Shown here: piece by piece, positions 7,952 to 62,290 of the stretch | Layout: the number at the start of each line of letters is the position of its first letter | How positions within the stretch are numbered: position 1 is the stretch's first letter | Source: an uncultured Candidatus Saccharibacteria bacterium | GTDB taxonomy: Bacteria > Patescibacteriota > Saccharimonadia > Saccharimonadales > Saccharimonadaceae | DNA length: 64,000 bases | Reading direction: 5' to 3' | Assembly: GCA_947085845.1 (NCBI GenBank) | Contig: CAMTXO010000002.1 | Span: forward strand, 234,231 to 298,230 | Made by a program: the position numbers and the translations under genes | Notes under the pieces: generated by a model | The model's input: the letters and a program-made list of their open reading frames with translations, nothing else | Database searches by the model: none | Told to the model about the DNA's origin: nothing

Positions 7952-8004
7952 TTTGTGACTATTTTGAGCAAGCTCAAAAGTCACAAGTTGATAACCTGAT
8001 AGCC

Positions 8005-8032
8005 AAATAAAATAGACCACCAATTGGTGATC
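8005..8032 (-). terminator. Intrinsic terminator of tRNA-Ser/tRNA-Met unit
   Basis: Minus strand GATCACC-AATT-GGTGGTC followed by TATTTTATTT. The stem contains a U-G pair that only works on the minus strand. Confidence 0.7.
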
Positions 8033-8434: not shown

Positions 8435-8594
8435 TGCTTTTATTAACCCTTTTTGTTTTTGTTTGTTGGTTATGTCTATATTCGCATAAATTAGCTTAAT
8501 TGTCAATATGATTATGGTTGTATTTTTGACTACCGTAAGCGTTTTATGATAGTCTATAGGGTGAAAACTCTATAAAAAGAAACATAACAAAAAA

Positions 8595-9299
8595 ATGATT
8601 AGTGCATCGCCTATTCTTGTCATCGCCTTCGCAGGTTTGCTGCATGCCAGCTTTCAACTTGGTGTAGCTTTGTTAACACTTCTCAGTGGTCATTCTTTGG
8701 GTGCGAATCGTTCATTCCGCAAACTAATGCGGCTTAATGTTGCATACCTACTTGGCGCGAGTGTTATCACTGTGTTACTTTTTGCTGCCCTGGCATATAT
8801 TGCTCTGGCGACAATTGGTGAAAATATACAAACTGCCTGGTTCATAGTTGCGCTGCTCAATATGGCTATAGGTGTTAGTGTTATGATATTTTATTATCGC
8901 CGAGAAAAAGGGACAGGGCTATGGATCCCCGACTCTATGGCGGAATATCTCAGCAAACGTGTTAAAAAAACTGATCATACCGCCGAAGCATTTACCTTGG
9001 GAGCCGGCTCGATATTAGCAGAGACTCCATTTTTAATAGGTCCGTTTTCAGTTGCAGTGCTTTATACCTTGACGCTTGATGGTGCTCAGTTGCAACTTTT
9101 TAGCTTGCTCATTTATAGCTTGATCGCACTAGCTCCTCTACTTGCTATCGTTAGCCTGGTTGGTGCTGGTCACAAGATTAGTCATATTCAAAAGTGGCGC
9201 GAAGAGAACAAACTTTTCCTCCAGTACTGTGCAGGTTGTGGATTGGTTATTTTGGGTGCGTTTGTCTTGGTTGATAAATTCATAGGAGCAGGTGTATGA
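8595..9299 (+). CDS. Integral membrane protein (6-7 TM), hypothetical
   Basis: Hydrophobic helices throughout. The stop overlaps the next start (ATGA). Confidence 0.55.
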   Translation: MISASPILVIAFAGLLHASFQLGVALLTLLSGHSLGANRSFRKLMRLNVAYLLGASVITVLLFAALAYIALATIGENIQTAWFIVALLNMAIGVSVMIFYYRREKGTGLWIPDSMAEYLSKRVKKTDHTAEAFTLGAGSILAETPFLIGPFSVAVLYTLTLDGAQLQLFSLLIYSLIALAPLLAIVSLVGAGHKISHIQKWREENKLFLQYCAGCGLVILGAFVLVDKFIGAGV

Positions 9300-48503: not shown

Positions 48504-49607
48504 CTACTTAAACAAGCCGCGTTTTTTTGAGGCTGATAATTTTTCAAATAGTTCTTTTTGCTGTTTTGTTAGTTTGGTCGGAGTATCTACTACGATTGTT
48601 ACGATATGAGGACCACGCTTGTCTCCTCGAAGGTGCGGAACTCCATGACCACTAAGCTTAAAATCAGTGCCTGCCTGTGTACCGGCTGGTACCTTCATGG
48701 TCATTACACCATCGACAGTTTCAACATCAATTTCAGCGCCAAGAGCTGCTTCGCTAAATGATATATGTTCATCGCTTAAAATCAAATCGCCTTCTCTTGT
48801 AAATTTCTTGTGAGGTTTCACGCGTATATGAACGAACAAATCACCCTTTGGACCGTTGGCGATGGCTTCGCCATGTTCACGCAATCTAATAGTAGCTCCG
48901 TCATCAATACCTGCTGGGATTTTGAGTTTTATATCTACTTTCTTCCTTTTCGTACCTTTTCCATGACAAACACTACAGTCTTTTTCTGGGATGCGACCTC
49001 TGCCAGAACATATAGGACAATTTTCATCTTGTTGTATTTGACCAAAGATTGTATTGACAATTCTTGACTTCCTGCCAGAGCCTTTACAGGTTTCGCAGAC
49101 TTTCATACCATGACCGGGTTCGGCACGTTTGCCTTTACAGTGCTCGCAGGTATCTTCCAATGTTAGACTAATTTTTTCTTCCAAACCAAAGATTGCCTCT
49201 TCGAAAGATAGTGTTAGTTCGGTCTCTACATCACGACCACGCCGTGCACGAGTTTGTTGTTGCTGGCCGCCACCAAAAAAACTTCCAAAAATATCACCCA
49301 GACCGCCATCACCAAAATCAAAATTACCAGTTTGTCCCTGAAAACCACCAAACCCTTCGAAAGGATTGCTACTAGCACCACCGGAAGATCCACCAACACC
49401 AGCGTGCCCAAACTGATCATACCTTTGGCGTTTGCTTGAGTCTTTTAGGACTTCGTAAGCTTCGTTTGCTTCTTTGAATTTAGCTTCATCACCACCCTCT
49501 TTGTCGGGATGATGCTTGACTGCAAGCTTACGAAAAGCTTTTTTTATTTCATCAGCTGAAGCGCCTTTTGCAATGCCCAGTACTTCGTAATAATCTCGTT
49601 TACTCAT
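48504..49607 (-). CDS. dnaJ: Chaperone DnaJ
   Basis: J domain with HPD, a G/F region, and four CxxCxGxG zinc-finger repeats. Confidence 0.96.
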
Positions 49608-49626
49608 TACATTCTATGATATCAAT

Positions 49627-49653
49627 TTAGCACTTACGTGTCTAGAGTGCTAA
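49627..49653. promoter_or_regulatory. CIRCE operator (HrcA site) upstream of dnaJ
   Basis: TTAGCACTT-ACGTGTCTA-GAGTGCTAA, compared with consensus TTAGCACTC-N9-GAGTGCTAA. Confidence 0.85.
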
Positions 49654-49695: not shown

Positions 49696-50814
49696 ATGAA
49701 ATATTTCCTACATCGCGCACTCGGTGCTGTTGGCATGGTTCGCGTCGGTATCCGTCAAGTGTACGGAAGATATTTTGGAAAAATAGAGCATATAGACGGC
49801 AACGCACGTCATGTGAGCGCTGAAATTGTAAAACGTCTCTGGAACGGCACTTTCTACCGAACAAGCTTGGGACATTATGATTTTTTCTGGATGCGTGACT
49901 TTGGTACAGTTGCTGAATCACTTACAAAATTAGGTCATGGAGAAAATGTTCGCAATACTTTAAAATGGGCACTTGTGCATTTTCAAAATATCGACCATGT
50001 AACGCTTTGCATTGATAAATCTGGTCGCACATTTAATGCACCAGATGGGCATAGTATAGACGCTTTACCTTGGCTGCTACACTCACTCGCAGTTAGTCAC
50101 TATGAATTAACACAGAAAGAACGAGTTTTTTTAAACCGTCGTTTGTCAAAATACTCCGAGAGATACATTGACTCTTTCACAGGTCATCTCACCAAAAATC
50201 TTTACGCTGAACTACGTGACGCGGTATTTTATGATCGTAGTGCATATTCGTATGCTTTGGTGGGTCGTCTAGCGGCTGCATCTCAAGAACTTGGCTTACA
50301 TTTTCCCTTTCCAAAAAGTCGTTATGAAGAAGCCTTGGTAAAATACTACTGGAATGGTTCGTTTTTTAGAGCTGACAGCAAACTAAATGTTTTTAGTGCC
50401 GACAGCGCCTTAATGCCTTTCTTTTTGAAGGTAGTTGAAGACGAAAAGTTGGTAAACAAGACATTCGACTATATAAACGATGAAAAACTTAACCGCCCTT
50501 ACCCACTCAAGTACAGTAAAATTGGCGGCAAAATACGCTATCGTTTCGGAATGGGGCCCATTGCGTTGCCAAACTACACAGGCAATAGTATATGGACATG
50601 GCACGCAACATTTTACCTTCATCTTCTTAAGCGCTATAAACGTCGCGAATATGGTCAAGAATATGAGAGATTTGCTTCACTAATCGAACGTCACGGTAAC
50701 TATCCAGAACTGGTAAACCCCGATGGGTCTTGGTATTATGCCCCCTTCTACCGTAGTGATCCTGGTATGGTATGGGCAGCACTTTTTCTAGAATTACCCA
50801 CCCCTCGCGATTAA
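49696..50814 (+). CDS. Glycoside-hydrolase-like (alpha/alpha)6-barrel protein (GDE_C/GH15/GH63-like), tentative
   Basis: The FFWMRDFG motif and protein size are the only support. The family call is weak. Confidence 0.4.
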   Translation: MKYFLHRALGAVGMVRVGIRQVYGRYFGKIEHIDGNARHVSAEIVKRLWNGTFYRTSLGHYDFFWMRDFGTVAESLTKLGHGENVRNTLKWALVHFQNIDHVTLCIDKSGRTFNAPDGHSIDALPWLLHSLAVSHYELTQKERVFLNRRLSKYSERYIDSFTGHLTKNLYAELRDAVFYDRSAYSYALVGRLAAASQELGLHFPFPKSRYEEALVKYYWNGSFFRADSKLNVFSADSALMPFFLKVVEDEKLVNKTFDYINDEKLNRPYPLKYSKIGGKIRYRFGMGPIALPNYTGNSIWTWHATFYLHLLKRYKRREYGQEYERFASLIERHGNYPELVNPDGSWYYAPFYRSDPGMVWAALFLELPTPRD

Positions 50815-50818
50815 GTAC

Positions 50819-50847
50819 TTGACAAATATTGCATAATGGAGTAATAT
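50819..50847 (+). promoter_or_regulatory. Consensus sigma70-type promoter
   Basis: TTGACA (50819-50824), a 17-nt spacer, then TAATAT (50842-50847). It begins 4 nt after the stop of the preceding CDS. Confidence 0.7.
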
Positions 50848-50851
50848 ATAA

Positions 50852-51270
50852 GTCCGCCACAAGTGAGTGGCCAAATGGGAAATAGATAGCCAGACCACAG
50901 AGTGAAATGACAGGCGTACACAAGTACCCTGTCCCTATTCAAGCGGGAGGACCGCAGCAAAGTGGCAATACAGCTCAAACCCTAGGGCAGAGGCCCCTAA
51001 ACCAAGACCTCACCCCCGACTTGACGCAGTCAAGTCACTAGTACCCGAAAGGGTCTACAACACCTGAATGCCCTGAACTTTTCAGTCACGCACTGAGAGT
51101 TGCAGTCGCATACACCGGCCGCGAATAGGGAGGAGAATACGAGATTCCAACAATAGCAGACTTAATAGGACTGAGGCAGACGTGCACTCACCCGACAAAG
51201 CAGCTTGAGGAAGTCGAGTTATCTCCTCCCTACCGGCACTCCAAGCCAGCGAGCAATCGCTGGCTATTTT
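50852..51270 (+). ncRNA. Unclassified ~420-nt structured non-coding RNA candidate
   Basis: It is promoter-to-terminator delimited and clearly more GC-rich than its surroundings, with no credible ORF. It contains many stable hairpins and a long-range GGGAGGAGA/TCTCCTCCC pairing. The terminator is GCCAGCGA-GCAA-TCGCTGGC followed by TATTTT (51245-51270). Confidence 0.6.
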
Positions 51271-51288
51271 CATATATAAACCCTAGAT

Positions 51289-53142
51289 TTATACTACATT
51301 TGTTAAGATATCTTGTAATTCTTGCTCTTCTTCTGAATTTAAAACAAAAGGAAAATCATTAGCACAGAATTTTATAACCCCATCAAGATCGTGTTTTTCT
51401 ACACCTAAGTAATCTTCTAATTCACCTCTTTTTAAGATGTATATCCCCTCTTTGTATTTTTCTTTTATACTTATATCTATTTGTTTTTGTTTTTTTTGGT
51501 CCTCCAGGTTAAAGGGTTTTATTACTCTCTTCGTTTTTATCTTATTTTCTAGGGAATTAACTTTGTAATCCTTGCTCTCGGCAATTTTTAATTTAATTAC
51601 ACAGTCATAGTCACCTAAAAAGAAGCTCTGTATTTTCCAGCCCTCAAGAAACTTCATCCACCTTTTGTGGCTATCTTTACCATCTATAGAAAGAACTCCT
51701 ATAGATTCACCAGGAAATTTTTTTTCTATAAAAGCTCTAAAAAAATATTCATCACTTATGCCCTCAACAAGCAGTATTCTATCTTCAAAGAATATTTTTG
51801 ATGAATTCGTATAGCTCAAATACTGTATTAGATCTTTGGTTTTAGAAGCTTCTACATTGGATTTGACTGACTTTGTATTACCACTATCATCTTTATACAA
51901 ACGAATCACACCTGGAATAGATACTTCATCTACAAAAGCAGGCGAATGAGTAACAAGAATTATTTGCAATTTCCTATCTTTAGAAAATTTTTCGATTATA
52001 TCCTTATACTGTCTTTGTAGTCTTGGGTGTAAGTGAAGTTCTGGCTCATCAATGATTACTATGCCGTCATTGACATTAAACATTCCTAGTGTTAAGAGTA
52101 AATCGATAATTGATTTTTCCCCTGAACTAAGGCTGTTATATGGAACTTCGCCATTGTTTTGTTTTAAGCAAAACTCAAAAGTATGGGTTTCGTATATATA
52201 ATCTTTTAGGTCAAATGATAGTCCTGAGTGCTTTTTAAGATACTTAATTGTTTCATCTTCTTCTAGCGCAGATCGGACGGCTTTTTCAGCTTCTTCTTTT
52301 CCATGCTTTTTTCCTGCAATATAGCCCTTGTCTATGAATTCCTGGAAAAAAATACTATTGCCATTTGACTGATCTTGATAATTACCAAGTGTGCTGGTCT
52401 TTAGCCCTTTTACAGTATTGATTTTTTCATTAAGAAGATCTGTTTTTGATTTGGCACGGCTAAAAGATAACGGGAAACCACTGTATATTCTGCTGGCGCC
52501 TTTCAATAGAAAAGTAGGCTTTAGATTATTTAGAGTATTACTTCCGTCTCCATTTGCATTAATCAGGTCTATTGCTCTGTTGATAAGTTCGTAATTCTCT
52601 AGGTACTGAGTCCATATATTTTGCACTTGTACAGTCGCAGTAATTTGCTGACCATAAATAAAGTCGATCTCTATGTCTTTTTGATTTACCATGAGATATT
52701 TTTTATCTGTTCTCTCAAGGTTAGTTAAAAAAATATCTATATTTTTGTTACTGTAAGCTGCTAAGCAGTTTGTGAGATCTGTAGATATACTTTTTATATA
52801 TTCTAGGTTCTTAATATCCGACTCTTCAAACAAGACAGAAAGCTTGACATTACCTCCGCCCTTGTCCTCTGAGTTTCGGTTGGCAATAAGATGTTCGATA
52901 TTTGTATTATCTTGAATAATTGTTTGTTTTCTAGATTGCTCGTTTATAGAACTACCGTAATTGAGGGTGTATTCACAAAAAAACACTTTCGTAAATATTT
53001 GGTTTATTATTTCAACCAGATTACTCTTGCCAGAACCATTAGGCCCAATAATAATATTGGGCCTATCATCTTCTAATACGATTGGTTCACTAGTTGTTGC
53101 GAAACTACGAATATTTGAAATTTGTATAGATCGCAGTTTCAT
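51289..53142 (-). CDS. OLD-family / PARIS-like ABC ATPase fused to a C-terminal Toprim (DUF4435-like) nuclease domain
   Basis: Walker A GPNGSGKS, signature LSSGEKS, Walker B VIIDEPELHLH, and H-loop VTHSP. The C-terminal region carries ILLVEGISDEYFF and FLGDYD (Toprim E and DxD), then GELEDYL. The SD AAGGAG lies inside the last dnaK codons. Confidence 0.75.
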   Translation of the reverse strand: MKLRSIQISNIRSFATTSEPIVLEDDRPNIIIGPNGSGKSNLVEIINQIFTKVFFCEYTLNYGSSINEQSRKQTIIQDNTNIEHLIANRNSEDKGGGNVKLSVLFEESDIKNLEYIKSISTDLTNCLAAYSNKNIDIFLTNLERTDKKYLMVNQKDIEIDFIYGQQITATVQVQNIWTQYLENYELINRAIDLINANGDGSNTLNNLKPTFLLKGASRIYSGFPLSFSRAKSKTDLLNEKINTVKGLKTSTLGNYQDQSNGNSIFFQEFIDKGYIAGKKHGKEEAEKAVRSALEEDETIKYLKKHSGLSFDLKDYIYETHTFEFCLKQNNGEVPYNSLSSGEKSIIDLLLTLGMFNVNDGIVIIDEPELHLHPRLQRQYKDIIEKFSKDRKLQIILVTHSPAFVDEVSIPGVIRLYKDDSGNTKSVKSNVEASKTKDLIQYLSYTNSSKIFFEDRILLVEGISDEYFFRAFIEKKFPGESIGVLSIDGKDSHKRWMKFLEGWKIQSFFLGDYDCVIKLKIAESKDYKVNSLENKIKTKRVIKPFNLEDQKKQKQIDISIKEKYKEGIYILKRGELEDYLGVEKHDLDGVIKFCANDFPFVLNSEEEQELQDILTNVV

Positions 53143-53148
53143 TTATTG

Positions 53149-55068
53149 CTACTCCTTTTTGGAGCCTTTGTCTTCGTCGATTACTTCACCTTCTACAGGC
53201 TCTTCTGTTTTCTTTTCTTCGCCTTCTTCTGCTGGTTCGCCTGCTGGCGAATTCTCAGCTGCAGCTGCTTCGTACAACTTAGCGCCAATTGGCATTACTT
53301 TTTCAGACAATTCTTTTGCAGCAGTTTCTAGCGCTTCTTTATCTGCAGCTTCGTCCGCCAAAACTTTTTTACCAGCTTCTACTGCCTCTTCGATAACTTT
53401 CTTGTCATCATCAGAAATCTTGTCCTTGTTTTCACTCGGTAGTTTTTCTGCTTGGTAGATACCGTTCTCTAGAGTGTTACGAGCGTCAATAGATTCGCGT
53501 TTTTTCTTGTCGTCTTCAGCATGAGCTTCGGCTTCTTTCTGAGCTTTTTCGATATCTTCTTTGCTCATATTTCCACTGCCAGAAATAGTAATAGACTGTT
53601 CTTTACCAGTTCCTTTATCTTTGGCAGCTACATTCAAAATTCCGTTTGCATCAATATTAAATGTTACTTCGATTTGTGGCACACCGCGAGGTGCAGGCGC
53701 GATGCCATCTAGCGTAAAGCGTCCGAGTGATTTGTTGTCGGTAGACATTTCACGCTCGCCTTGCAGTACATTGATTTCAACCTGCGGCTGATTGTCTGCT
53801 GCAGTTGAATAAGTTTCGGACTTGCTAGTAGGAACTGTTGTGTTTCGCTCGATCAACTTGTGAGTTACACCACCAAGAGTTTCGATACCAAGCGAAAGGG
53901 GAGTGACATCTAGAAGTAGTACATCTTTTACGTCCCCTGCTAATACTCCACCTTGTATAGCTGCACCAACGGCAACTACTTCATCCGGGTTCACGCCTTG
54001 CATAGGGTCTTTACCGAAAATTGATTTTACCTTTTCGACGACTGCAGGCATACGTGTCATACCACCAACAAGTACAATTTCGTCGATATCACTTGCTTTT
54101 AGTTTTGCGTCTTTCAATGCTTTTTCAACTGGTTTTGCCGTTGCGTCGATCAAATCACCTACGATTTCTTCGAGTTTGGCACGAGTCAGTTTGTATTCAA
54201 AATGTTTCGGACCATCTGCATCGGCAGTAAGAAATGGCAGGTTAATGTCTGTAGATGGAGTGCTTGAAAGCTCCTTCTTAGCTTTTTCGGCTTCGTCTTT
54301 GAGACGTTGCATTGCTGCATTGTCGCCTTTTAGATCAACACCGTTTTCTTTTTTGAATTCATCTAAAAAGTGGTTGACGATTCGGTTGTCAAAATCTTCA
54401 CCGCCTAGGTGTGTGTCGCCGTTAGTAGATTTTACTTCGAACACGCCGTCGCCTAGCTCTAATATAGATACATCAAATGTACCACCACCAAGGTCAAAGA
54501 CCGCAATCTTTTCTTCCTTTTTCTGATCTAGCCCGTACGCTAGAGCAGCTGCAGTTGGTTCATTGATTATTCGTTTGACTTCTAGGCCTGCAATCTTACC
54601 CGCATCTTTGGTTGCTTGGCGCTGTGCGTCGTCGAAATATGCTGGAACGGTGATGACCGCTTCAGTCACAGACTCACCTAGAAACGCTTCGGCATCGGCT
54701 TTTAACTTACTCAGGATCATTGCCGAAACAGCTTCTGGCGTTTCACTTCCGTCACCTAATTTTACTGCCACACCATTGCCTTTTTTGACAATTTCAAATG
54801 GCATTAGGTCGATATCTTTTTGTACTTCTTTATCTGTAAATTTACGTCCAATCAAACGTTTCACACCATAGATAGTGTTTTTGGCGTTCGTTACTCGCTG
54901 ACGTTGGGCAACTTGCCCAACTAAACGCTCGCCTTTTTTGTTGACTGCTACGACAGATGGCGTAGTTCGATTACCTTCAGCATTCGCAATAACTTCTGGC
55001 TTGCCCGCAACCATGTAAGCTACTGCGCTGTTAGTAGTACCGAGGTCGATTCCTATGATTTTGCCCAT
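53149..55068 (-). CDS. dnaK: Chaperone DnaK (Hsp70)
   Basis: GIDLGTTNS and DLGGGTFD motifs, full-length Hsp70, with an acidic tail. Confidence 0.97.
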
Positions 55069-55144
55069 ATTTTTAGATTTCCTCCTAATAATTTTCTTGT
55101 AATTATTCTAGCACTCAAGTGCTTATACTGCCAGTATATTATAG

Positions 55145-55171
55145 CTGGCACTCGTGTGTCAAGAGTGCTAA
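55145..55171. promoter_or_regulatory. CIRCE operator upstream of dnaK
   Basis: CTGGCACTC-GTGTGTCAA-GAGTGCTAA. On the minus strand a TTGACA lies in the spacer. Confidence 0.8.
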
Positions 55172-61077: not shown

Positions 61078-61542
61078 CTACTTTTTAGTAACTTTTACCA
61101 TCGCATGACGTATTGGAGTTTGGCCTAGTAGATAGCCGGGTTGTAGCTCTTCGGCTATGACTTCACTGTCACCCTCAGCTTCTTCGTCGAATTGTATGGC
61201 TTCATGCAGATCGGGGTTGAAGGCTGTGCCAGCTTTTGCATCGATTCGCTTCAAGTTTAAACCTTCAAGAGATTTGTCAAGGTTTTTTGCTAAGCCTGCG
61301 ACACCTTGTGCCCATTTGTCAGCTTTGAGCTCAGCTGGCATATGGCCAATTGCTCGCTCGATATTGTCGATGACTGGTAGTAGCTTTAAGATTGCGCCTG
61401 TTTGCCCTGCTTCGCGTGCAGAAAGTTTGTCGAGCTCGCTACGGCGTCGAAAGTTTTCGAAATCGGCACGAGTACGCTGCAAGTCGGCGATTGCGTCGAT
61501 CAACTTTTCTTCTAGCTCGGCTTGTTTTTTAGGCTTTGGCAT
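61078..61542 (-). CDS. grpE: Nucleotide exchange factor GrpE
   Basis: DFENFRRR and NPDLHEAI motifs. The start abuts the hrcA stop (TAAATG). Confidence 0.93.
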   Translation of the reverse strand: MPKPKKQAELEEKLIDAIADLQRTRADFENFRRRSELDKLSAREAGQTGAILKLLPVIDNIERAIGHMPAELKADKWAQGVAGLAKNLDKSLEGLNLKRIDAKAGTAFNPDLHEAIQFDEEAEGDSEVIAEELQPGYLLGQTPIRHAMVKVTKK

Positions 61543-62280
61543 TTAGAGAATTTCCTCCAACATTGAACCCGCATGTCGGACTAACCCCATAACTTTGCCG
61601 TAGCTTTGACGTGTTGGGCCAAGTATACCTATGTAGCTGTTGTCACTATATGGTGAGCGGAAACGACTAATGATTAGTGTTGCTTCGGCGTTTTTTCCAA
61701 TTGGATTTTCAGTGCCAATAAAGACATTTAGTGGTTCGTTTGGCGCGGCTTCACGTAGCCACGGCTCGAGGTTGTCGAGTAGGCGTGCAACATTTTGCGA
61801 ATGAGTCGCACCGGTAAATTCTGGGTGTGAGAAAAGATTGCCCATACCACTAAGATACAACTGGTCGCCAATAGTTGCGATGCCTAAGTTGTGCGTAAGG
61901 TCGGCAAGGCTGTCTACTGTAGAGCGAATAGCTTGGTCGGCACGATCGCCGTGCGTAGAAGCACGAGCTTCGATGGCACGTGCGCTGCGATCTAACACTG
62001 GAGTTTCGTTTGCTTCGGTAATGCCGTTTACATAGTAGCGATAGCCTTTGTCGGTAGGTACTCGACCTGCACTTGTGTGAGGCTGGGCTATAAGACCCAT
62101 TTCTTCAAGACGCACCATTTCTGCGCGAATAGTTGCACTGGAAACACCGAAAAGTTTTGCGAGAGTAACACTACCTACAGGTACCGCAACTTCTGCATAC
62201 TGTTCGATAATGCTGGCCAAAATAGCAATTTGTCTCTCTGTCATATGTGTAATTATAGTCTTTTTGGCGCTCTCGGTCAA
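61543..62280 (-). CDS. hrcA: Heat-inducible repressor HrcA (short form)
   Basis: LTERQIAIL...VGS..LA....VSSATIR.EM..LE..G....PHTSAGR.PT..GYR. The start is either the TTG at 62280, overlapping the upstream stop (TTGA), or the ATG at 62244. Confidence 0.9.
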   Translation of the reverse strand: MTESAKKTIITHMTERQIAILASIIEQYAEVAVPVGSVTLAKLFGVSSATIRAEMVRLEEMGLIAQPHTSAGRVPTDKGYRYYVNGITEANETPVLDRSARAIEARASTHGDRADQAIRSTVDSLADLTHNLGIATIGDQLYLSGMGNLFSHPEFTGATHSQNVARLLDNLEPWLREAAPNEPLNVFIGTENPIGKNAEATLIISRFRSPYSDNSYIGILGPTRQSYGKVMGLVRHAGSMLEEIL

Positions 62281-62290
62281 TGAGTGCTAG
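62264..62290. promoter_or_regulatory. Degenerate CIRCE-like inverted repeat at the hrcA start
   Basis: Minus strand CTAGCACTC-ATTGACCGA-GAGCGCCAA, with 8/9 and 7/9 matches to the consensus arms. Confidence 0.5.

Follow-up and report, generated by a model that had tools for sequence, protein, structure and literature searches.

A compositionally foreign Class 1 OLD nuclease gene directly behind dnaK in a Saccharibacterium

We studied a stretch of 64,000 nucleotides from an uncultured Candidatus Saccharibacteria bacterium (assembly GCA_947085845.1, contig CAMTXO010000002.1, positions 234,231 to 298,230; hereafter the window), and in it a gene of the OLD nuclease family that lies directly behind dnaK. 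The contig has 574 kb. This gene (51289-53142, minus strand) is an intact open reading frame (ORF) of 617 aa encoding an ABC-type ATPase with a helical insertion followed by a C-terminal Toprim nuclease domain. We consider it rather probable, taking all parts of the reading together, that it is an intact Class 1 OLD gene, foreign and accessory, that is transcribed from the dnaK promoter under the control of CIRCE (controlling inverted repeat of chaperone expression) and has a probable anti-phage role. Its closest homologue is found in the same position in another lineage. Two OLD genes that are reciprocal best hits and follow dnaK at a distance of 6 nt, each in its own Saccharibacteria lineage, represent an unusual recurrent context. 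The original prediction, made from the sequence of the window, had regarded such a gene as unusual in a reduced genome. This holds for its position but not for its presence: our homology search showed that OLD genes are not rare in Patescibacteria.

The ORF and all the motifs quoted in the original prediction are present in the translation. The ATPase motifs GPNGSGKS, LSSGEKS, IIDEPELHLH and VTHS occupy residues 33-40, 338-344, 363-372 and 397-400, and the C-terminal motifs ILLVEGISDEYFF, FLGDYD and GELEDYL occupy residues 456-468, 508-513 and 573-579. The protein (P0001 in our homology searches) matched the Pfam profiles AAA_15 (1.4e-26), AAA_21 (9e-27) and SMC_N, all above their cut-offs, in agreement with the predicted complete ABC-type ATPase. 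The C-terminal region had been attributed to a Toprim or DUF4435-type nuclease module, and only the first of these terms was retained. The OLD-like_TOPRIM profile (PF20469) matched residues 451-513 with an E-value of 1.3e-10 (42 bits for a cut-off of 23.2 bits), whereas the profile of the DUF4435/AriB-type Toprim (PF14491) gave no match to the protein at E <= 1. The closest entry of the PDB by sequence was the Class 1 OLD of Thermus scotoductus (Ts OLD, 6p74, E 2.8e-10), and a tblastn search of phage genomes recovered the Old protein of phage P2 (26% identity over residues 361-525, E 4e-9).

We used an alignment of 71 homologue sequences (A2) to assess the conservation of the functional residues. 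Residues N35, G38, K39, S40, S339, D365, E366, H399, E460, D464, D511 and D513 were invariant, G341 was invariant or nearly so, and E576 was nearly invariant. The first four belong to the Walker A motif or P-loop (G33-S40, codons at 53023-53046, minus strand). The conserved ATPase residues correspond in motif and spacing to the Walker A, signature, Walker B and H-loop residues of Ts OLD. In that enzyme, E377, D431 and D433 bind metal A, D381 and E480 bind metal B, and mutation of these ligands cripples the enzyme (PMC7049728). Their counterparts in the Toprim region of the window protein (residues 450-617, 51292-51795, minus strand) are, by match of motif and spacing and not by structural superposition, E460, D464, D511, D513 and E576, which correspond to E377, D381, D431, D433 and E480 respectively. 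The counterpart of S478 of Ts OLD is E574, at a position that is variable across the family.

The AlphaFold2 model built on the same alignment was confident (mean predicted local distance difference test of 86, predicted TM-score of 0.86). It places four helices (residues 233-252, 263-280, 282-295 and 297-306) between strands of the ATPase, and these account for the helical insertion of the original prediction (residues 233-306 approximately, 52225-52444, minus strand). In Ts OLD, the ATPase contains an inserted dimerisation domain of four helices (PMC7049728). The modelled insertion occupies the place of this domain and is a putative dimerisation module. In the Toprim domain the helix 491-501 runs straight into the strand 505-510, and the model shows no helical insert of the Class 2 type between Toprim helix 3 and strand 4. 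The Toprim region has 168 aa, compared with around 155 aa in Ts OLD. When the model was compared with the PDB using Foldseek, it gave full-length matches to the OLD of retron Eco8 (9lp9_B, E 3.9e-16), Ts OLD (6p74) and the Gabija protein GajA (8u7i_A), with E-values from 1e-16 to 1e-14. Hence, profile, sequence and fold searches all identify the C-terminal domain as a genuine OLD-type Toprim. The identity to the solved structures was just 14-17% in the Foldseek alignments, and around 30% to most homologues. The window protein is thus a new and divergent addition to an already known family.

The patchy distribution of the gene and its AT-richness in a reduced genome, both described below, might suggest an inactive remnant of a past insertion that is heading for loss. 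We find this very improbable, given that the ORF is full-length, the N-terminus of the protein agrees with the consensus of the family, no catalytic residue is lost and the structural model is confident.

The classes of OLD are set by gene context (PMC10568477, PMC12392090). The original prediction proposed a lone gene and offered three identities for it: Class 1 OLD, GajA-like, or a fused form of PARIS AriA-AriB. The gene is indeed alone. Its neighbours are dnaK, a structured RNA, a gene for a 372-aa protein without Pfam match, and dnaJ. Our inspection of the neighbouring ORFs and of their Pfam matches revealed no UvrD-like helicase (GajB), no reverse transcriptase and no split AriA/AriB partner near the OLD gene. 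Therefore, the window gene is a Class 1 (single-gene) OLD nuclease under the context-based scheme, and neither PARIS nor DUF4435. It resembles the other Class 1 OLDs (P2 Old, Ts OLD and the Vibrio cholerae enzyme, Vc OLD) in being encoded by a single gene and in lacking the insert between Toprim helix 3 and strand 4. It differs from Ts OLD in being longer (617 aa against 528 aa in the crystallised chain). Class 1 genes have been described as stand-alone, whereas this one lies inside a heat-shock gene cluster and has no recognisable promoter of its own.

Some profile matches suggest instead that the protein belongs to a multi-gene system, be it as GajA, as an Eco8-type effector that uses the adjoining RNA, or as a fused AriA-AriB. 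The PADLOC models for GajA, AriA and AriAB and the NCBIfam model for the Eco8 effector gave significant but partial matches, a structured RNA ends 23 nt from the OLD stop codon, and the Eco8 OLD is the best Foldseek match. We give this explanation almost no credence, as the genes present contradict it. Gabija GajA (Class 2) has the same two-domain architecture and fold (8u7i_A and 8sm3_A, E around 1e-14) and many of its PADLOC models match the window protein, but the Old model ranks first (8.5e-33); the models for GajA and AriA/AriAB come after it and align mainly to the ATPase. Besides lacking the Class 2 insert, the gene has no adjacent GajB: its stop codon is followed by the RNA and the convergent 372-aa gene, and Gabija was ruled out. 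PARIS AriA (Class 4) is similar mainly in the ATPase region (PDB 8ux9, E 2e-7; PADLOC AriA and AriAB), whereas the window gene encodes one fused polypeptide with an OLD-type Toprim and no match to PF14491. PARIS was thus also ruled out.

The retron Eco8 effector (Class 3) is the top match in NCBIfam as well as in Foldseek, but it reached 68 bits for a cut-off of 250 bits; the match to PtuA was likewise far under its cut-off. A retron would also require the neighbouring RNA (50854-51272, plus strand, around 420 nt) as a partner of the nuclease. The original prediction had noted this convergent RNA as a further oddity. It is strongly structured (fold z = -5.5 relative to shuffled controls) and has its own promoter and terminator, but it is unrelated to the OLD gene. 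We compared the window with four close relatives whose DnaK is 94-96% identical to that of the window (loci L003/L004, L090, L094 and L095). The RNA is present beside a NUDIX gene in L090 and L095 and beside a DUF4145 gene in L003, whichever gene fills the place of OLD, and it is absent at the locus of the closest OLD homologue (L001). It is therefore a resident of the dnaK-dnaJ interval of this clade and not part of the OLD cassette. With no reverse transcriptase nearby, a retron with this RNA as partner was ruled out.

The position of the gene relative to dnaK could be read directly from the sequence and is as originally predicted. The dnaK gene (53149-55068, minus strand) encodes a protein of 639 aa that is 73-90% identical to DnaK proteins from metagenome-assembled genomes of Saccharibacteria; homologues that are 95-96% identical to it have the HSP70 Pfam annotation on record. 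The junction (53143-53157, minus strand) reads ...AAA AAG GAG TAG CAATAA ATG AAA CTG... It consists of the Shine-Dalgarno (SD) sequence AAGGAG (53157-53152) within the last codons of dnaK, the TAG stop codon (53151-53149) and the 6-nt spacer CAATAA (53148-53143), followed by the ATG of the OLD gene (53142-53140), which starts 9 nt after the SD. Simple consensus scans of the stretch from the dnaK promoter to the start of OLD detected neither terminator-like sites nor minus-strand promoter-like sites, as originally claimed, and folding of the junction gave no strong hairpin (z = -1.7).

The dnaK promoter and its operator (55133-55171, minus strand) include the predicted CIRCE element at 55171-55145, which reads TTAGCACTC-TTGACACAC-GAGTGCCAG with a 9-nt spacer and has two mismatches to TTAGCACTC-N9-GAGTGCTAA. 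The -35 box TTGACA (55162-55157) sits within the CIRCE spacer and the -10 box TATACT (55138-55133) lies 18 nt further on, with 11 of 12 positions matching the promoter consensus. We found three CIRCE-like sites in the window, for 0.02 expected by chance. The second precedes dnaJ (gene at 48504-49607, CIRCE at 49627-49653 with one mismatch, together 48504-49653, minus strand), and the third (62264-62290, three mismatches) lies at the start of hrcA. The genes grpE (61078-61542) and hrcA (61543-62280) are on the minus strand in the region 61078-62290 and were identified by Pfam matches to GrpE (2.4e-35) and to HrcA (2.4e-15) and HrcA_DNA-bdg. Given these three sites, the genome would have at least three separate HrcA-controlled units: hrcA-grpE, dnaK-OLD and dnaJ. 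The OLD gene, the RNA and the 372-aa gene together separate dnaJ from dnaK in the window. The locus thus resembles the known HrcA/CIRCE operons (hrcA-grpE-dnaK-dnaJ) in having CIRCE over the dnaK promoter and in the presence of hrcA and grpE, and differs from them in the nuclease gene of foreign composition behind dnaK. A perfect palindrome, AGCACT-TG-AGTGCT, is also found in the 5' leader of dnaK just past the predicted -10 box (55110-55123, minus strand). It resembles two CIRCE half-sites without the 9-nt spacer; a hairpin of the leader and a second operator are both conceivable.

Co-expression of OLD with dnaK is likely, given the gap of only 6 nt between the genes, the lack of any detected terminator or promoter in between, the CIRCE over the dnaK promoter and the presence of hrcA. 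It was deduced from this geometry, and the arrangement in L001 adds support to it. Several points weigh against this part of the reading. The consensus scan could have missed a weak promoter located in the 3' portion of dnaK. Moreover, high levels of read-through from the very active promoter of a chaperone would pose a risk when the product is a nuclease, so that expression of the OLD gene may be damped. Two structures are candidates for such damping: a weak hairpin of 5 bp at the junction (GCUCC/GGAGU), able to mask the SD, and a stem just past the start codon. The latter arises in both OLD genes, where pairing can form between the codons following the ATG (GAAACU...) and an AGUUUC further downstream. 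It has 10 bp in the fold of the window (53100-53139, minus strand), and a scan of L001 listed a stem of 9 pairs (8003-8026). This stem might damp the initiation of translation.

A gene with its own unrecognised promoter at the end of dnaK would escape heat-shock control, and the place behind dnaK would then be a mere tolerated insertion point. Promoter scans are crude, AT-rich DNA readily gives promoter-like sites (we found 15 in the scanned region for 11.4 expected), and genes in this place are not always co-transcribed with dnaK: by eye, a hairpin that resembles a terminator, with a T-run behind it, stands between dnaK and the NUDIX gene in L090. Yet, the scan revealed no promoter-like site on the minus strand from 55105 to 53034, the 6-nt gap is too small for a terminator, and the L001 locus implies transcription across the OLD gene. 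We therefore hold an independent promoter to be unlikely, while granting it some weight, and favour co-transcription with dnaK.

Comparative evidence comes from the sister gene at L001. Its product, P0002, is the sole homologue with more than 34% identity to the window protein among 5.8 billion protein clusters (42% identity, reciprocal best hit). Searches with either P0001 or P0002 found nothing but each other above this value. The gene (L001 8001-9776; Joint Genome Institute (JGI) 3300060671, contig Ga0597086_0000296) was found on JGI and Logan metagenome contigs that belong to another Saccharibacterium, one rich in GC. It starts 6 nt past the stop codon of dnaK and ends 7 nt before dnaJ, in the gene row hrcA-grpE-orf-dnaK-OLD-dnaJ, which keeps the canonical hrcA-grpE-dnaK-dnaJ order with the nuclease gene placed between dnaK and dnaJ. 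The spacers differ, as the junction reads TAA-AAAATA-ATGAAACTA in L001 and TAG-CAATAA-ATGAAACTG in the window. The L001 locus has CIRCE sites before hrcA and dnaK and none before dnaJ, so dnaJ seems to depend for its expression on transcripts that run through the OLD gene.

The composition of both genes is foreign to their surroundings. We compared the 55 ORFs of at least 150 aa that were retained from the window, and the OLD gene had the lowest GC content of all (32.6%, against 42.1 +/- 2.5%, z = -3.8), as the predicted AT-richness implied. The deficit is present at all three codon positions. The contrast is also striking in L001, where the OLD gene has 36% GC and 31% GC at third codon positions (GC3), against 54-60% and 62-75% in the flanking genes, and where the boundaries in composition fall at the stop codon of dnaK and the start codon of dnaJ. 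We found no direct or inverted repeats flanking the OLD cassette of the window and no recombinase gene nearby, and therefore rejected a mobile-element signature. A phage origin was also rejected: a tblastn search of 50,697 phage records gave distant matches only, including P2 Old, and no close relative.

The slot behind dnaK holds other genes or no cargo in the four close relatives. The window has the order dnaK, OLD, RNA, 372-aa gene, dnaJ. L003/L004 have dnaK, a DUF4145 gene whose start overlaps the dnaK stop codon (L003 9920-10570), the RNA and dnaJ. L090 has dnaK, a NUDIX gene (139 aa, 8571-8990), the RNA, the 372-aa gene and dnaJ. L095 has dnaK, a NUDIX gene (279-698) and the RNA, within which the contig ends. 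In L094, dnaK directly abuts the 372-aa gene, with neither cargo gene nor RNA. The alternative cargo genes are also AT-rich, with 36-37% GC for 43-45% in their flanks. We found no OLD match near dnaK in the loci of 55 further Saccharibacteria species, 46 of which had at least 1 kb of sequence downstream of dnaK. Since OLD is missing from the slot in the nearest relatives and in the 55 other species, it is an accessory gene and not a conserved core neighbour of dnaK, in line with the original prediction. Across the Saccharibacteria loci the first gene 3' of dnaK is mostly an unrelated singleton, e.g., a GNAT acetyltransferase, a SocA/Panacea antitoxin-like protein, a phosphotransacetylase or, in many cases, a protein without Pfam match. 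In six loci (L039, L043, L047, L052, L054 and L057) the first ORFs after dnaK are unrelated, have 76-148 aa and start 0-4 nt past the stop codon; one of these predicted ORFs encodes a GNAT protein and the others have no Pfam match. Close coupling of variable cargo to the dnaK stop codon may thus be recurrent in Saccharibacteria.

How the gene reached this slot in two lineages can be told in two ways. The DnaK of L001 is 83-88% identical to that of species with an OLD-less slot and 76% identical to that of the window. The distribution of the carriers is therefore phylogenetically discontinuous. This and the composition fit lateral transfer. In contrast, the divergence of the two carriers fits vertical descent: their OLD proteins are 42% identical, while their GrpE and Gmk proteins are 42% and 37% identical. 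Two observations weigh against a foreign origin. Firstly, an old arrangement, vertically inherited with many losses, fits a divergence of OLD like that of GrpE and Gmk. Secondly, the deviation in composition of the window gene lies mostly in the codon positions that determine amino acids, and its choice of synonymous codons is not unusual within the window. Hence, of the deviations in GC and codon usage that might have been expected, that in GC is strong and that in synonymous codons is absent. Both an ancient insertion followed by many losses and repeated transfer into the same slot, for example by recombination in the conserved dnaK and dnaJ flanks, fit the data.

Anti-phage defence is the most likely role of this gene, by analogy with P2 Old and Vc OLD. 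A defence role of Class 1 OLDs is documented (PMC12392090, PMC12445682, PMC10568477). Vc OLD nicks DNA, P2 and Ts OLD degrade DNA in vitro, and P2 Old cleaves the anticodon stems of tRNAs in vivo, with abortive infection as the outcome (PMC12392090, PMC12445682). In the mechanism we propose, OLD would be transcribed with dnaK from the HrcA/CIRCE-controlled promoter, and its expression would rise when repression by HrcA is lifted. Translation would start from the SD inside dnaK, possibly aided by ribosomes that end at the dnaK stop codon and open the SD hairpin. Activation of the ATPase would then license the two-metal Toprim site to cut nucleic acid, either by nicking or degrading DNA or by cleaving tRNA anticodon stems, as in characterised Class 1 OLDs. 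Phage replication would be stopped at the cost of the infected cell.

The archaeal Cran1 provides a precedent against a defence role, as this OLD-family protein acts in cell-cycle progression and not in defence (PMC12796447). A non-defence role is accordingly possible for the window gene, but its patchy distribution and foreign composition argue against it. A specific version of this alternative is that the linkage to dnaK is functional, OLD being a factor of stress response or genome maintenance (e.g., one that, under proteotoxic stress, processes damaged DNA or RNA) or else interacting with DnaK/DnaJ as their client or partner. The two closest homologues among the billions of clusters searched do share the same position in different Saccharibacteria subclades, their divergence is similar to that of the neighbouring orthologues, and Cran1 shows that a class of the family can take a housekeeping role. 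However, one would expect a housekeeping partner of DnaK to be widespread, and the slot is empty or filled by unrelated genes in the closest relatives and in the 55 other species. The composition of the L001 gene is also strongly foreign, especially in GC3. Furthermore, seven more distant homologues (around 30% identity, several from Patescibacteria) are all lone genes in unrelated contexts, one adjoining the methylase of a Type III restriction-modification system, and none of them is near dnaK. A functional partnership with the chaperones is in our view quite unlikely, and we retain defence as the preferred role.

To our knowledge, Class 1 is the least understood class of OLD: anti-phage activity has been shown only for P2 Old and one Vibrio enzyme, and the question of what triggers these nucleases is largely open. 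The immune repertoire of the reduced genomes of episymbiotic Saccharibacteria is, as far as we know, also poorly charted. The window gene offers a concrete test case, namely a candidate defence nuclease with a dosage that would follow a signal of proteotoxic stress. The 3' flank of dnaK is where further accessory and defence genes of Saccharibacteria might be sought. If the linkage is incidental, it is simply another divergent Class 1 OLD gene.

One may speculate further that the dnaK-linked OLDs form a small subclade whose heat-shock wiring has been selected and, independently, that the dnaK-dnaJ interval is a cargo slot anchored by recombination; we deem this combination possible but unlikely. 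Under selected wiring, phage infection or a burst of foreign proteins would titrate the chaperones and inactivate HrcA, thereby raising the level of an otherwise scarce nuclease. Defence would then be gated by proteotoxic stress. In a recombination-anchored slot, accessory and defence genes would be exchanged between Saccharibacteria lineages via the highly conserved chaperone genes on both sides. Our literature search found no description of CIRCE-linked or CIRCE-controlled defence genes, of dnaK-dnaJ hotspots or of a nuclease gene behind dnaK.

The structured RNA of the interval has a conserved promoter at 50819-50847 (TTGACA-17-TAATAT), and its terminator hairpin (51244-51265) has 9 bp and a GCAA tetraloop followed by a T-run. 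Its GC content is around 51% in a genome with 42% GC. Homologues are found in L090 (8121-8576), L095 (1-284) and L003 (10571 to around 11000, minus strand), and these three show some compensatory changes. Pairing is predicted between the two invariant blocks AAUAGCAGACUUAA and ACAAAGCAGCUUGAGGAA, which enclose a hairpin that is variable in sequence but still paired. The RNA was seen only in close relatives, using a covariance model of its 3' domain on 66 loci and one motif scan of a metagenome. No Rfam 15 family matched the window at gathering thresholds, E <= 1 or E <= 10, nothing overlapped the RNA in L090 and L003 at E <= 10, and ARAGORN called no transfer-messenger RNA (tmRNA). A likeness by eye to CR-I/CR-V of RNase P and to the tag end of tmRNA was rejected, as no model supports either. 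It may represent an RNA not yet described, or else a housekeeping RNA that has diverged very far.

The dnaK of L094 (GCA_016196195.1, JACPYF010000038.1, 2219-3914) was matched by tblastn in two segments in different frames and was not called as a gene; it is either frameshifted or affected by an assembly error. The 372-aa protein (49696-50814, plus strand) is conserved in Saccharibacteria, belongs to a 90% cluster of 39 members and clusters with proteins labelled as Saccharibacteria. Its gene is convergent to dnaK in several species (L006, L015, L016 and L094).

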